This document shows positions 4,934-9,429 of a stretch of 17,767 nt of DNA, in pieces (positions within the stretch are counted from its first letter, which is position 1; every line of letters starts with the position of its first letter). Source of the stretch: a virus (taxonomy: Duplodnaviria > Heunggongvirae > Uroviricota > Caudoviricetes). The translations under genes were made by a program, and so were the position numbers. The notes below the pieces were generated by a model. It searched no databases, was not told where the DNA came from, and saw only the letters and a program-made list of their open reading frames with translations. The stretch spans positions 1-17,767 of the IMG/VR virus record IMGVR_UViG_2690316149_000014. One strand, 5' to 3'.

Positions 4934-5373
4934 TGGTTGCCTCCTTTGCGAAGCTGGGCAGCAATACTTACGCATATCTCTGCGCATCTAATCAGCCCCG
5001 GAACGTTCTTGTTTGGCCCAACTTCACCATCAACAAAATCAATCATCGCGTTACGAGCCATCTCCACACCCTGCGCCCGCACTTCAGCCAGGAAGGCGTC
5101 GGTGGCTGGGGTTCCCTCTACCACTAACCCTACTGGAGCTAGATATTCTTTCATCCCCGCATTCTCCACAGCCAGCGCCGCGCACTTGGCCTCAAGGTTA
5201 TCAATCGTGATTCCAGCAGAACGACACTCACGCAACGCTGTTTCTAGTTTTGATTCAAGTTCACCGAACTTACGCACCAGATATTCAGCGTTTGTTTCGT
5301 TAACCTTTAAATCACTTGGGATGCATTTACCTTTCAGAAATCCATCCATCTCAATTAGTGACATTTGTTTCAT
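4930..5373 (-). CDS. Hypothetical phage early protein, ~147 aa
   Basis: Track ORF 4930..5391 starts at GTG with no RBS; the ATG at 5373 follows GGAG/GGGAAG. Start uncertain. Confidence 0.55.
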   Translation of the reverse strand: MKQMSLIEMDGFLKGKCIPSDLKVNETNAEYLVRKFGELESKLETALRECRSAGITIDNLEAKCAALAVENAGMKEYLAPVGLVVEGTPATDAFLAEVRAQGVEMARNAMIDFVDGEVGPNKNVPGLIRCAEICVSIAAQLRKGGNQ

Positions 5374-5668
5374 TTCTTCCCACTCCGCCACATCGCATTC
5401 AGATATTTGTTTTGATTCACTGATGCTTAAGAATTTCTCTTAAGCAATTCCTCTCTCGATGGCATTGGCTTTACGCGTTGGCGAATAATCATTTCTGCCG
5501 GAAGAATGCCGGGATTGTATGCAAGACCTCTCATGATTTACTCTCCACGAACTGGTCAATAGCCATGCTAAGTGACACACCTAAAGTCTCGATATGCTGC
5601 TGAATATCCTGTAGCGTCTGCGCCTGAGATAACAGGATTTCACGGTTGCATAACTCTTTAACCAGATG

Positions 5669-5831: not shown

Positions 5832-6125
5832 TCAGTCATTACTGATAGCGCCATAGCGTGAGCGGTAATTACGCAGGCGCGGGTCGATTTCAGGGAAGTG
5901 GGTATATGTGGCTTTGCGGAATGGTCGGATTGATGTCTGGTAAATTCGCTCTCGTTCTTCTTTCTCTGCAAGCCATATGCAGTGGCGAAACTCCTTTTCC
6001 TCTTTCGTTTCCTGCGGTAGAGACATTATTCGATCGTAGTTTTTTCTGAATTTATCCAGCACCTCCGATACGGAATTGCCGGAACAGCGGCGCGGGTCAT
6101 CCGCACCATATAGAGGCGCTGGCAT
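5832..6125 (-). CDS. Hypothetical phage protein, 97 aa
   Basis: RBS AGGAGAA 5 nt before the ATG at 6125; operon position between the exonuclease and downstream accessory genes. Confidence 0.55.
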   Translation of the reverse strand: MPAPLYGADDPRRCSGNSVSEVLDKFRKNYDRIMSLPQETKEEKEFRHCIWLAEKEERERIYQTSIRPFRKATYTHFPEIDPRLRNYRSRYGAISND

Positions 6126-6141
6126 GGTTTTCTCCTGTTGA

Positions 6142-6690
6142 TTATTTAGCTAACTTTTTCCAGATCGCTGAAACGTATTTGGCTTGGTGGATGGCATCAT
6201 CAAGCGCGTTGTGGCGAGTTCCTTTGAATGGCATATCTCGCTTAGGATCGAATCCTATTACCTTCCCAAGTTCGACGATTGTTCTTACGTCGCGGTCATT
6301 CCACCACTGCCACGGAACTGGCTGCCCTGTCAGCGAATAACTGTTGCGGAGAATAACGCAGTCAAATGATGCTCCATTCCCCCAAACCTGAACGAGTTTG
6401 TGGTTGGCGTTCTTTATGATGAATTCAGATAACCATGAAAGAGCCGTTGAAAGCTCTTGAGTGTTGCTGGTTAGCGATTTTCTGGCTTCTTCACTCTGTT
6501 CCATCCACCATAAAATCGTTGAAGCGTCAGGACGCGCCCGATATCGCATTGATGACTCAAGCGAGATATTTACCGAGAACTCTTCTCCTGTTTCTCCGGT
6601 ATTCGGGTCAAAGAATACCGCCCCAATAGAAATAACTGGCGCATATGGCCCGTTGCCCATTGTTTCAAGGTCAACCATTAAGTGATTCAT
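6142..6690 (-). CDS. 3'-5' exonuclease, DnaQ-like DEDDh family, 182 aa
   Basis: Exo I motif MVDLETMG near the N-terminus and Exo III-like H…ALDDAIHQAKY near the C-terminus; RBS AAGGA. Confidence 0.8.
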   Translation of the reverse strand: MNHLMVDLETMGNGPYAPVISIGAVFFDPNTGETGEEFSVNISLESSMRYRARPDASTILWWMEQSEEARKSLTSNTQELSTALSWLSEFIIKNANHKLVQVWGNGASFDCVILRNSYSLTGQPVPWQWWNDRDVRTIVELGKVIGFDPKRDMPFKGTRHNALDDAIHQAKYVSAIWKKLAK

Positions 6691-6698
6691 GTAAGTCC

Positions 6699-7205
6699 TT
6701 AAATTGCGTGAATAGCGTGACGAGGGAAGGGGAGAGTTACTGGTGCAAAGGGTATATCGTCGTCAAAATCCATCGGAGGTTCGTTGTGTTGTGCTGGTGA
6801 TGATTGCTGCTGTGGTTTCTGTGATTGCCTGCTGGCTGCTTGTTGTTTGCTGTCGCCAATGCCGCCAAGCATTTGCATCACGCCATTAATTCCGACATGA
6901 ACCTCGGTTGTGTAACGGTCTTGCCCTGACTGGTCTTTCCACTTTCTGGTTCTCAGCATTCCCTCGAAATAAACCTGATCACCTTTTTTCACATACTGCC
7001 CCACGACCTCAGCCAGTTTCCCGGATACAGCAACACGATGCCATTCAGTCAATTCCTTTTGCTCGCCAGTATTTTTATCTCGCCATTGTTCTGACGTGGC
7101 TATTGTCAGGTTAGCGAACGCTGTTCCTGATGGTGAGTATCGAACTTCCGGGTCTTGTCCTACCCGACCAAGGATAATCACCTTATTTACGCCTCTGCTT
7201 GCCAT
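6699..7205 (-). CDS. ssb: Single-stranded DNA-binding protein (phage SSB), 168 aa
   Basis: N-terminal OB-fold signature ([23 protein letters not shown]…), Gln/Pro-rich linker and acidic C-terminal tail …MDFDDDIPF. Confidence 0.9.
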
Positions 7206-7913
7206 TTATGCCGCCTGTTTTAGTTCGTTAACTCTGATGTTCATTACCTGAACGCATTTAGCCTGCGCATCCTCATTGCCAGCCATTAATTGCCAGTCAT
7301 GCTGATAACGTTCTATGAGTTTTTTCTTGTCAGTTTCTGTTGATGCATAATCGCTGAAGTCTTTCAGGATTTGTTCGCAGTCAACCGATGGAGATTTCTG
7401 GTTGGTATTTTCTGGTGATGGTTTGTTATCTGATGCTGGGATTGCCCATCCCGGCAGCGATGGAGGGAGCCAGTAAAATCCTGTTCCATCTTTCAGTTTT
7501 GCCCTGTGCCATCCCTGCTTTTTATCGAGAGATGTTTGTGCGAAACCTTCCTCAAGGTTATACAGATACCGACCGATTCCCCATTGAACGGCAGCACGCT
7601 TCATTGCACCGGAACGACCACCTTTGACGGCTTCTACCTGCGTGTTTTCAGCAGCATCCCATTTGGTTACCCATTCGGAATCAATCTTGATTGATATGCC
7701 GCATTCAACTCCGCCGTTGTTGGGAATATCGCGGTATTCATTGCGCCATCCTGCTTTGCCGCAAACATCGTCCAGGCGTTTCATGATTGCCCTGTTCGTG
7801 ACATAAGCCAGCACCATAGCCCACACCTTTCCATCGCGTGTTTTACCGCTTTGCTGTATTCGCCATTCGATATCTTCAGGGCTGAATGGCTCATCGAATT
7901 TATTCAAATCCAT
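7206..7913 (-). CDS. Single-strand annealing protein, Rad52/22-like family, 235 aa
   Basis: Motif …GGRSGAMKRAAVQWGIGRYLY… recalled as typical of phage Rad52/22-type recombinases; RBS GAGGTGA; stop abuts the ssb ATG (TAAATG). Confidence 0.65.
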   Translation of the reverse strand: MDLNKFDEPFSPEDIEWRIQQSGKTRDGKVWAMVLAYVTNRAIMKRLDDVCGKAGWRNEYRDIPNNGGVECGISIKIDSEWVTKWDAAENTQVEAVKGGRSGAMKRAAVQWGIGRYLYNLEEGFAQTSLDKKQGWHRAKLKDGTGFYWLPPSLPGWAIPASDNKPSPENTNQKSPSVDCEQILKDFSDYASTETDKKKLIERYQHDWQLMAGNEDAQAKCVQVMNIRVNELKQAA

Positions 7914-8000
7914 AATTCACCTCAGAATGGACATGGCCCAAGGAAATAACGCTGATTTAATACTTCAGTCTTTGCCGCATTTAAAAATACGCGAACACCT

Positions 8001-8171
8001 TCACGATCTCCCTTCTGGCGATACATTAACGCCTGCTGCGTGTACATGCGTCTCTGTAACTTGCTCTCCTTCACTGTGGTTGCAAGTGACATGAATATCT
8101 CCTTCGTTACCGATTAATTCTTTCATCTGACGAATGAATTCTTCGTCTGACCAGTTATCTGTAAAACTCAT
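8001..8171 (-). CDS. Hypothetical small acidic protein, 56 aa
   Basis: Track ORF trimmed to the ATG at 8171, which overlaps the kil-like stop as ATGA. No family recognised. Confidence 0.4.
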   Translation of the reverse strand: MSFTDNWSDEEFIRQMKELIGNEGDIHVTCNHSEGEQVTETHVHAAGVNVSPEGRS

Positions 8172-8460: not shown

Positions 8461-9429
8461 TTAGTAGGTTATTTTTGTTGCGAATACTTCGCCTTTTACG
8501 ATGGCTGTTATGATATTTTTAGCAACATCTTCTGATGCGCCAACCTTGATAAGGTCAGCAAGTATTTTGTTATTTACTTCTTTCCGGTGAGCTTTATCCT
8601 TTGCTCTACGCTCTTCTTCGTCCTTGATTCTTTTTTCTTCTGCTATTCTGGCTTGCTCTTTTGCTTCAGCCTCGCGACGGGTTCGTTCAGCCTCCTCCTG
8701 TGCTTTTCTGCGTTCTGCTTCAATTGCTGCCTGCTTTTCTCTTTCAGCTCGTTCTGCTGCCTCTTTTGCTTCGCGCTGTGCTCGTTGCTCGGCTTCAATG
8801 CGTTCACGCTCTGCACGTTCCGCTGCGGCCTTAGCTTCTGCTTCTCGCCTTGCTGCTGCTTCAATTTCGGCTTTTGCCTTTGCTTCGGCTTCTGCTCTGG
8901 CTTTCTCTTCAGCTTCTCTTTTTAATCGTTCTTCATGCTCTCGCTTTTCCTGCTCCGCTTTGAGTCTTGCCTCTTCTCTTTGGCGGTCAAATTCGCGATC
9001 CATCAAAATCGCTATTTCATGGTCAGACTCAATTTGCTTTGCGAGAGCTTCAGCTGCTGCCTTAGCTTCTTCTTCGGCTTTAATCCGCGCCTGTTCTTCC
9101 TCATAATCAGTAAGAGGCTGGCGCGCCTTGGCTTTCAGTTCATCAAGGCGATCACGCACTGTCTTGCGGTTGGCATCAATTAGCTTTGGAATTTCCTTAA
9201 GTTCAGCAACAAGGTCTTTGCCAATACCATCGAGATATGTTTTCGTCTGCGCAACTTTATACGCCAGAGAAGCGATCTCCTTTCTGCCCTTTGCCGTTGT
9301 GATATCAGGCACAAAGGACATAACTTCACGTTCAACCTTTTGAAGGATTTCTTCAATCTGGTCGGCAGACTGAAATACAGTCATTGCATTTGCTTTTTCA
9401 ATAACAACTAAATCTGTTACTTCACTCAT
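8461..9429 (-). CDS. Hypothetical phage protein, 322 aa, with long Glu/Ala/Lys/Arg-rich low-complexity coiled-coil centre
   Basis: Strong RBS GGAGGA; central ~150 aa are EAKR repeats, with matching GC-rich DNA repeats at 8600-9000. Confidence 0.65.
   Translation of the reverse strand: MSEVTDLVVIEKANAMTVFQSADQIEEILQKVEREVMSFVPDITTAKGRKEIASLAYKVAQTKTYLDGIGKDLVAELKEIPKLIDANRKTVRDRLDELKAKARQPLTDYEEEQARIKAEEEAKAAAEALAKQIESDHEIAILMDREFDRQREEARLKAEQEKREHEERLKREAEEKARAEAEAKAKAEIEAAARREAEAKAAAERAERERIEAEQRAQREAKEAAERAEREKQAAIEAERRKAQEEAERTRREAEAKEQARIAEEKRIKDEEERRAKDKAHRKEVNNKILADLIKVGASEDVAKNIITAIVKGEVFATKITY

Follow-up and report, generated by a model that had tools for sequence, protein, structure and literature searches.

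The closest described relatives of the locus considered here are the recombination ('Rec') modules of lambdoid phages. A 2025 survey of 325 such phages defined an 'ES18 functional type' of Rec module as a contiguous early-left set of genes for an anti-RecBCD protein, an SSB, a nuclease and a SAP, with no extraneous genes (Genome Res 2025, PMC12315714); the survey classifies the module we describe and cites the DnaQ-type nuclease of the Salmonella phage epsilon34. Genes 33-36 of epsilon34 were published earlier in connection with an 'Erf domain swap' in the annealase (PMC2629481), and phages in GenBank that were sequenced in 2008 or later carry the module. For the anti-RecBCD protein Abc2, the structure with RecC accompanies a model in which host RecBCD is turned into a resection nuclease and recombinase loader (PMC9836394). 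[quoted passage not shown]

The stretch of DNA we analyzed (17,767 nt, hereafter the window) comes from a lambdoid prophage. We suggest that positions 5832-7913 of its minus strand are a homologous-recombination module of the early-left operon, made up of four contiguous and probably co-transcribed genes (annealase, ssb, exonuclease and abc2) whose products function as their characterized homologues do; we put the probability of this reading at roughly 80%. The module is an already known, ordinary and catalogued P22/ES18-type prophage recombination cassette. It matters little as a discovery and is useful as a correction, in that the module is read as four genes, with the RecBCD hijacker Abc2, and in that the exonuclease is best treated as an optional add-on.

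Composition and setting of the module

The original prediction placed the module at 6142-7913 and gave it three genes. That interval is filled exactly by three minus-strand ORFs, encoding an annealase (SSAP, 7206-7913), an SSB (6699-7205) and an exonuclease (6142-6690), and the tight linkage claimed for them agrees with the ORFs and with the stop and start coordinates: the SSAP stop codon TAA (7206-7208) directly abuts the ssb ATG (7203-7205), leaving a gap of 0 nt, and ssb is separated from the exonuclease gene by 8 nt. The cluster does not end there. A fourth gene, abc2 (5832-6125, minus strand), starts 16 nt after the exonuclease gene, giving a back-to-back cluster that spans 5832-7913, and a scan from the SSAP start to the abc2 stop found no promoter-like or terminator-like site between them. 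Because abc2 belongs to the cluster, the narrower interval cut off one member, and a module of annealase, SSB and exonuclease has to be replaced by one of four genes.

The 97-aa product of abc2, a RecBCD-hijacking anti-RecBCD protein, matches PF11043 over its full length (212.7 bits, E=6.1e-64) as well as phrog_656, and is 93.8% identical to P22 Abc2 over 97 aa. We compared 70 loci whose annealase is at least 99% identical to that of the window, and in every one of them abc2 adjoins the annealase cluster. Functionally, Abc2 corresponds to Gam, and it is a member of the same gene cluster; its presence explains why the module can do without a resection nuclease like lambda Exo. The earlier statement that there is no Gam-like gene is correct at the level of sequence homology and wrong functionally, since abc2 lies directly after the exonuclease gene. 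That the module is not lambda Red was well judged: homologues of lambda Exo (YqaJ-type), Bet and Gam were found neither by Pfam in the ORFs scanned nor among the genes annotated in the phage and genome regions that match. We also looked for a homologue of Abc1 and found none.

Two overlapping 56-aa ORFs on the minus strand (7922-8092 and 8001-8171) occupy the position of P22 arf, and their membership in the module is uncertain. Both are annotated in mEp235 and Sf6 and neither has a Pfam or NCBIfam match; ORF 7922-8092 matches phrog_1723, which is labelled 'recombinase'. We rejected them as homologues of P22 Arf, the similarity not being significant (E=0.13).

The backbone is lambdoid, with a CI-like repressor of the LexA family, CII and a DnaB-like helicase, and the module is a mosaic region within it, as had been predicted. 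The prophage is inserted adjoining cscB in an E. coli chromosome, and the window contains no tRNA gene that would mark the prophage end. At least 80% of the abc2-SSAP query was matched in 138 complete E. coli genomes, and RefSeq names the same genes correctly.

The SSAP (235 aa) is, by Pfam, BLASTP and AF2/Foldseek, a domain chimera, in which a Rad52/Sak-type annealing domain (aa 1-160, nt 7434-7913) is followed by a disordered linker (aa 162-176) and a P22-Erf-type C-terminal three-helix domain (aa ~177-235, nt 7209-7385). Residues 4-136 match Pfam Rad52_Rad22 (PF04098), for which the cut-off is 20.3 bits, with a score of 91.9 bits and E=5e-26, and all 120 SSAP homologues listed carry this family. 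In an alignment of 153 aa, residues 8-159 share 59.5% identity with Sak/ORF252 of Lactococcus phage ul36, which is reportedly the biochemically studied phage Rad52 homologue. An Erf-type N-terminal annealing domain was not found, Pfam giving no Erf match at E<=0.01, and for RecT/Red-beta there was no Pfam match and no such structure among the 50 Foldseek matches listed. A sequence search against PDB chains returned only spurious WW-domain matches (E~0.1), so a fold-level search was needed. With the AF2 model (pLDDT 82) as the query, the top 16 Foldseek matches in the PDB were all Mgm101 or human RAD52 (probability 0.95-1.0, E 1e-4 to 9e-3), at modest TM-scores of 0.25-0.49. Judged by profile and by modelled fold, the annealing domain is of the Rad52 family, as had been proposed, and not of the Erf or RecT family.

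The C-terminal part has a different affinity. Residues 157-235 are 65.8% identical to residues 134-205 of P22 Erf (BLASTP) and are the only part of the protein that aligns to Erf; by these alignments the SSAP is a mosaic of a Sak/Rad52 N-terminal domain joined to the C-terminal domain of P22 Erf (the last ~80 residues). The label 'Erf-like' given to it by PHROG and GenBank is owed to this Erf-type C-terminal domain alone. When the isolated three-helix domain was submitted to Foldseek, it matched generic helical bundles only (best E=1.1). This result did not bear out a relationship to the C-terminal domain of Red-beta, and since there is no significant structural match, any partner named for the domain is a guess.

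Characterized homologues of these proteins suggest how the module most likely operates. Abc2 would bind the RecC subunit of host RecBCD, causing Chi to be ignored and the 5' strand to be resected, and the modified enzyme would leave the 3' single strand to the phage recombinase rather than to RecA. The phage SSB would coat this strand and aid recruitment of the annealase; the Rad52/Sak-type annealase would then pair it with a complementary single strand, such as that at a replication fork or a further resected end. The Erf-type helical domain of the annealase would serve for partner docking, with Abc2-RecBCD or the SSB as candidates. The exonuclease would be a dispensable accessory; in the weakest step of this proposal, it would most likely trim recombination intermediates at their flaps or at 3' ends that are single-stranded.

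The exonuclease as an optional cassette

The 182-aa exonuclease (6142-6690, minus strand) matches the Pfam Rv2179c-like family PF16473 over its full length (244.9 bits, E=5.5e-73), and its membership in the DEDDh (DnaQ/DexA-like) family predicts a 3'-5' polarity. The DnaQ-type Exo I and Exo III motifs already noticed in the sequence are there, as D7/E9 (DLET) and H160/D165 (HNALDD), and Exo II is present as D110 (GASFD). The protein matches T4-like dexA at ~30% identity, and the closest solved structure is 8KEL/8KEN, a 227-aa 'Exodeoxyribonuclease' (E=7e-14) that we take to be T4 DexA on the basis of the T4-like dexA matches and the paper on DexA crystallography (PMC12153337). Residue W130 is the counterpart of DexA W152; the tetramer contact D90 has no counterpart.

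Among the 70 loci, the exonuclease gene is present in 26 and absent from 44. It is also absent from phage HK75, which shares the annealase, ssb and abc2; against HK75 the insertion has clean boundaries and lies between the stop codon of ssb and the ribosome-binding site of abc2. We therefore read the exonuclease as an optional accessory cassette, neither a fixed partner of the annealase nor an analogue of lambda Exo. Nor is a pro-recombination role obvious, because in general enzymes of 3'-5' polarity destroy 3' tails and thereby inhibit recombination (PMC12315714).

If the exonuclease does not trim recombination intermediates, it could be an accessory nuclease directed against other DNA, either as a DexA/'HREX'-type enzyme that degrades the modified, 5hmC-containing DNA of T-even phages when they superinfect, or as a scavenger of host DNA. 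We regard this as unlikely. The homology to 8KEL/8KEN is consistent with it, as are the retention of the catalytic residues and W130 and the lack of a D90 counterpart, features reported for EcD, an E. coli homologue of DexA that digests T4 DNA and protects cells (PMC12153337); the patchy presence of the gene among near-identical modules also resembles that of accessory or defence cassettes. However, a defence gene must be expressed in the lysogen. We found no internal promoter for such expression, and lacking a promoter-like site of its own in mid-operon, downstream of pL, the exonuclease gene should be silent in a repressed lysogen. In addition, the PADLOC match is weak and to a generic DEDDh protein (E=2e-4), and the accession of EcD (HAK9828821.1) is not among the cluster members listed.

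We think it still less probable that the exonuclease is the dedicated partner of the annealase, as lambda Exo is of Bet, in a three-gene module that needs nothing beyond annealase, SSB and exonuclease. The spacing in the cluster, with neighbours only 8 nt and 16 nt away, is what such a partner would lead one to expect, and on the same grounds the 2025 survey counts the nuclease a 'very likely legitimate' member of the Rec module (PMC12315714). Against this, lambda Exo and RecE act 5'-3', whereas the 3'-5' action of a DEDDh enzyme would remove the very 3' tail that annealases use. A dedicated partner is also hard to reconcile with a gene that is missing from HK75 and from most of the loci compared and that has the boundaries of a clean cassette insertion, while abc2, which provides resection through RecBCD, is retained in all 70. 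Cooperation with an HNH homing endonuclease of the same slot, with the exonuclease processing the homing break much as DexA does in the documented case of T4 intron homing (PMC12153337), is very improbable: the two genes lie adjacent between ssb and abc2 and co-occur in Bas106 and 6 loci, but their distribution is independent (exonuclease in 6 of 21 loci with HNH and 20 of 49 without; Fisher p=0.42), and the window has the exonuclease and no HNH gene.

The C-terminal extension of the SSB

The 168-aa product of ssb (6699-7205, minus strand) is a bacterial-type SSB, matching Pfam PF00436 (OB-fold DNA-binding domain) at 125.8 bits (E=8.5e-37) and TIGR00621 at 167 bits (cut-off 54), and this form of the protein belongs to an 880-member cluster from Escherichia, Salmonella and Citrobacter. 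Bacterial SSBs recruit partner proteins via a DDDIPF tip. In the window SSB this acidic motif lies inside the protein (aa 148-153 of 168), with a further 15 residues after it; the free C-terminal ...DDDIPF-COOH expected of a bacterial SSB is not found, the motif being there and not forming the C-terminus.

The 3' end of the gene is a 45-nt boundary element, CCAGTAACTCTCCCCTTCCCTCGTCACGCTATTCACGCAATTTAA (6699-6743, minus strand), which here supplies the last 14 ssb codons and the stop; in relatives that bear a homing-type HNH endonuclease gene between ssb and the element, the same element forms the last 14 codons and stop of that gene. Its sequence shows no difference (100% identity) among the window, mEp235, epsilon34, HK75, Sf6 and Bas106. 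With the element in 401 of 5426 complete E. coli genomes, the capped form of the SSB is common. In the 70 loci sampled, the extended ssb tail occurs without exception in those lacking HNH (49/49) and in none of those with it (0/21).

We did not adopt the view that the 14-aa tail belonged to the HNH family from the outset: the alignment of distant HNH homologues ends at ~aa 140, but a second HNH allele shares the last ~45 aa, tail included. The event may therefore have run in either direction. Either the HNH gene entered an ssb that was already extended, or ssb became joined to the 3' end of HNH when HNH was lost. A search of the 44-aa SSB tail against a database of 5.8 billion proteins returned only 10 short fragments, which are of use only as anecdotal tail variants.

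We offer tentatively, as something we would not yet bet on, the idea that the window SSB is a natural 'capped-tip' variant and that the presence or absence of HNH would toggle the SSB between a free and a capped tip, changing the host or phage proteins it recruits. Any functional effect of the capping is pure conjecture; it may, for example, keep the host 3'-5' exonuclease ExoI away from recombination intermediates. Because 15 residues cap the tip, coupling between SSB and annealase may not follow the precedents of HK620 and lambda. We found no paper describing a capped SSB tail or an HNH toggle, and the observation may be new. It poses a cheap, testable question about the coupling of the SSB tip to the annealase, and this annealase and its SSB variants could find a place in sets of recombineering tools.

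Comparison with known systems

Lambda Red (Exo, Bet and Gam) occupies the same operon position and has the same task, annealase recombination guarded from RecBCD, yet at the level of the families compared none of the proteins is homologous. Resection in the window module would be outsourced to Abc2-modified RecBCD instead of being carried out by a phage 5'-3' exonuclease; the module encodes an SSB, and its nuclease, judging by its family, has the opposite polarity. [quoted passage not shown] The annealing domain is of the Rad52/Sak type in the window and of the Erf type in P22, and the window has no Abc1, no significant homologue of Arf, and an SSB and exonuclease between annealase and abc2.

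In phage ul36, the gene for the SSB (ORF141) directly follows that for Sak (ORF252), as in the window, although the annealase has a different C-terminal domain, the SSBs are 31% identical, and the annotated region contains neither Abc2 nor an exonuclease. The hkaM-sak4-ssb-abc2 genes of HK620 have the same annealase/SSB/Abc2 layout, but the HK620 annealase is the RecA-like Sak4, its SSB shows no homology to the bacterial protein, and there is no exonuclease (PMC5928155). The window exonuclease has its DEDDh catalytic residues in common with T4 DexA and E. coli EcD (PMC12153337); it differs from T4-like DexA in its length (182 aa against 227), in a sequence identity of only ~30% and in its location within the Rec module of a temperate phage.

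The nearest systems are genes 33-36 of Salmonella phage epsilon34 and the modules of E. coli phages mEp235 and mEpX2: all four genes are shared, and their order and spacing are unchanged. The DNA of the module is 98.6% identical to that of mEp235 and 90% identical to that of epsilon34, the proteins are 99-99.5% and 90-93% identical, respectively, and the annotations match. With its four genes back to back, the window module is of the 'ES18 functional type', in the sequence variant that epsilon34, mEp235 and mEpX2 carry. We see no difference of substance from epsilon34 and mEp235; the window holds a prophage copy of the module, flanked by other early-left genes.

The annealase and its gene cluster

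The interval 6142-7913 is occupied exactly by three minus-strand open reading frames, which encode a 235-aa annealase (7206-7913; Pfam Rad52_Rad22, E=5e-26, 91.9 bits against a cut-off of 20.3), a 168-aa SSB (6699-7205; Pfam SSB, E=8.5e-37) and a 182-aa DEDDh 3'-5' exonuclease (6142-6690; Pfam Rv2179c-like, E=5.5e-73, full-length match). The TAA stop of the annealase gene abuts the ATG of ssb, and 8 nt separate ssb from the exonuclease gene; the coordinates thus bear out the tight linkage claimed in the original prediction, and the family assignments are far beyond chance. [quoted passage not shown] The earlier statement that there is no Gam-like gene therefore holds for Gam homologues but overlooks a Gam analogue. 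Neither promoter-like nor terminator-like sites were found between the annealase start and the abc2 stop, which is consistent with co-transcription from pL.

Three independent lines of evidence (profile, sequence identity and model fold) assign the annealase to the Rad52 type rather than to Erf or RecT. Rad52 is the only Pfam profile it matches. Over residues 8-159 it shares 59.5% identity with Sak (ORF252) of Lactococcus phage ul36, a biochemically studied phage Rad52 homologue. In the comparison of its AlphaFold2 model (mean pLDDT 82) with the PDB, the top 16 matches are yeast Mgm101 or human RAD52 (probability 0.95-1.0); Red-beta, RecT and other SSAP structures outside the Rad52 type are absent from the 50 hits listed. 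The C-terminal part, residues 157-235, shows 65.8% identity to P22 Erf (residues 134-205) and is modelled as a separate three-helix bundle past a disordered linker; submitted in isolation, this domain gave no significant structural match. The annealase is a chimera of a Rad52/Sak-type annealing domain and a P22 Erf-type C-terminal domain, and the latter is why PHROGs and GenBank call it "Erf-like". Such a swap of the Erf C-terminal domain has been described before (PMC2629481). The reading of the module as Rad52-type, mosaic and unlike Red consequently stands, although it had missed both Abc2 and the chimera and had overstated the place of the exonuclease. As a separate observation, ssb comes directly after the annealase gene both in the window (annealing domain at 7434-7913) and in the locus holding ul36 Sak (L005, 2471-3229), and the identity of the two annealing domains, unusually high for phages of Gram-negative and Gram-positive bacteria, suggests a fairly recent domain transfer.

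Several small genes flank the cluster. Just upstream of the annealase, in the position of arf in P22, are two minus-strand 56-aa reading frames (7922-8092 and 8001-8171) that share about 90 nt, read in different frames; mEp235 and Sf6 both carry annotations for the pair as homologues of HK97 gp42/42.1, and the first matches a PHROGs family called "recombinase". Pfam and NCBIfam gave no match to either, and neither resembles P22 Arf significantly. Farther upstream (8461-9429, minus strand) lies the gene of a 322-aa protein whose long coiled-coil center is highly charged and rich in E, K, A and R (phrog_1376; a homologue of Sf6 gene 33). PGAP labels it "TolA" or "coiled-coil", it has no Pfam match, and it gives that segment its extreme AT skew (-0.42). 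Downstream of abc2 (5376-5534, minus strand) is a homologue of P22 orf56 (DUF2737; 72% identity over 53 aa), a conserved small neighbor found likewise downstream of abc2 in P22, HK75, Sf6 and epsilon34.

The exonuclease as an optional cassette

The DnaQ-type Exo I and Exo III motifs described earlier are present (D7 and E9; H160 and D165), as is an Exo II residue, D110. What did not survive is the idea that the exonuclease is a fixed member of the module. HK75 has annealase, ssb and abc2 as in the window and lacks the exonuclease, abc2 starting 13 nt after the ssb stop; the window cassette (GGACTTAC-ATG...TAAATAA) fills precisely the interval from the ssb stop to the abc2 ribosome-binding site. 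The slot can hold an HNH endonuclease gene instead, as in Sf6, or HNH and exonuclease together, as in Bas106. We collected 80 viral contigs with an annealase matching that of the window at 99% identity or more, 70 of which had enough downstream sequence to be classified: 29 have ssb-abc2, 20 the window arrangement ssb-exo-abc2, 15 ssb-HNH-abc2 and six ssb-HNH-exo-abc2. Since abc2 is present in 70/70 loci and the exonuclease in 26/70, the constant core is annealase, SSB and Abc2, and the exonuclease is an add-on.

The closest solved structure to the exonuclease is a 227-aa "Exodeoxyribonuclease" (8KEL/8KEN, E=7e-14), and T4-like dexA genes match it at about 30% identity. We take 8KEL/8KEN to be T4 DexA. 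This reading follows from the dexA matches and from a crystallographic paper on DexA (PMC12153337), and given this kinship DNA is no less plausible as a substrate than RNA, to which the Pfam name points. We favor a role in which the exonuclease would trim 3' ends or flaps of recombination intermediates, and we give this reading, taken alone, a probability of roughly 0.4. A serious alternative is a DexA-like function unrelated to annealing: EcD, an E. coli homologue of DexA, digests 5hmC-modified T4 DNA and protects cells (PMC12153337, 2025), and the window exonuclease, as described for EcD, retains the catalytic residues and a tryptophan corresponding to DexA W152 and has no counterpart of D90. 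Against this alternative, the gene sits in mid-operon without a promoter of its own, and its PADLOC match is weak and generic. A link to HNH homing, which the shared slot might bring to mind, is argued against by the independent distribution of the two genes (Fisher p=0.42, 70 loci).

The extended SSB tail

Canonical SSBs end in ...DDDIPF, and partner proteins reportedly bind the free C-terminal Phe, as in the SSB-partner complexes of the Keck laboratory. The window SSB runs 15 residues past this tip. The final 45 nt of the gene (6699-6743, minus strand; the last 14 codons) show 100% identity among the window, mEp235, HK75 and epsilon34; the comparison as a whole covers the loci L002, L003, L006, L007 and L009-L088. 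Sf6 and Bas106 have a canonical ssb that stops at IPF, and there these 45 nt belong to the HNH endonuclease gene and specify its final 14 residues. This relationship has no exception among the 70 loci: the extended tail occurs in 49/49 loci without HNH and in 0/21 with it, the tail of the latter being canonical in 21/21. The extended tail is found on two SSB alleles with just 78% identity between their cores, and also follows more divergent Klebsiella-type linkers. The element is found in 401/5426 E. coli genomes, annotated mostly as part of ssb, and the 168-aa SSB belongs to an 880-member cluster (Escherichia, Salmonella, Citrobacter).

Either HNH was inserted into an already extended ssb, or its loss fused ssb to the HNH 3' end; since distant HNH homologues lack the 14-aa tail while a second HNH allele carries it, both directions are candidates. 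The two alleles (L017 and L041, about 5140-5653, versus L011 and L003) occupy the same site after ssb and are 43% identical N-terminally, with near-identical last ~45 residues, tail included; their sequences suggest repeated exchange or replacement of a homing gene at this site. A literature search returned no paper on the capped tail or the 45-nt element, the only trace being a GenBank note that Sf6 gp26 has 14 contiguous residues in common with "E. coli SSB", and the arrangement may be new. We consider it rather doubtful that this SSB/HNH toggle of the capped tip has functional consequences; altered binding of SSB partners is a candidate.

Proposed mechanism, occurrence and known systems

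The mechanism we propose is drawn from characterized homologues, none of its steps from these exact proteins. The four genes would be transcribed together from pL. Abc2 would convert RecBCD to a Chi-independent enzyme that resects the 5' strand and makes its 3' single-stranded product available for the phage recombinase instead of RecA, and the annealase would then join the SSB-coated strand to its complement. This action of Abc2 on RecBCD is the published model, and phages encoding it "apparently lack an exonuclease function" as RecBCD supplies one (PMC9836394), which fits a module whose only phage-encoded nuclease works in the wrong direction to resect. In the syntenic module of HK620, the cognate annealase is stimulated by the phage SSB through its last six tail residues, and oligonucleotide recombineering is unaffected by Abc2 (PMC5928155). 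Chi sites are scarce in phages that carry an anti-RecBCD gene (PMC12315714), a correlation that the window fits, no Chi site (GCTGGTGG) being found on either strand of its 17.8 kb.

At the start of the window stands a complete gene for a cscB-type MFS sugar transporter (1-1248); next comes the end of a lambdoid prophage, whose genes here include xis/TorI, early-left genes, a LexA-family CI-like repressor, Cro, CII, an O-like protein, a DnaB-like helicase and nin genes. Neither an integrase nor a tRNA gene lies within it; the int-less start is consistent with an attP of the Sf6/HK620 type, between int and xis, which would put int at the opposite prophage end. The stretch from abc2 to the annealase is 98.6% identical in mEp235, 98.2% in mEpX2 and about 90% in the Salmonella phages epsilon34 and g341c, and matches 138/5426 complete E. 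coli genomes at a coverage of at least 80%. GenBank labels these phage regions Rad52/22 family protein, exonuclease, SSB and Abc2, and on E. coli chromosomes the RefSeq pipeline names the four genes likewise. The module was known before and is catalogued.

With lambda Red the module has only position and purpose in common. With P22 (arf-erf-abc1-abc2) the common features are Abc2 and the Erf C-terminal domain; the module's annealing domain is Rad52-type, and it has SSB, with or without the exonuclease, where P22 has abc1; comparison with P22 Abc1 found no homologue in the window. A 2025 survey of 325 lambdoid phages describes Rec modules as combinations of an SSB, a nuclease, a strand-annealing protein and an anti-RecBCD protein, the "ES18" functional type having all four (25 phages) and the "HK75" type lacking the nuclease (27 phages) (PMC12315714). 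The window module is the epsilon34/mEp235 variant of the ES18 functional type.
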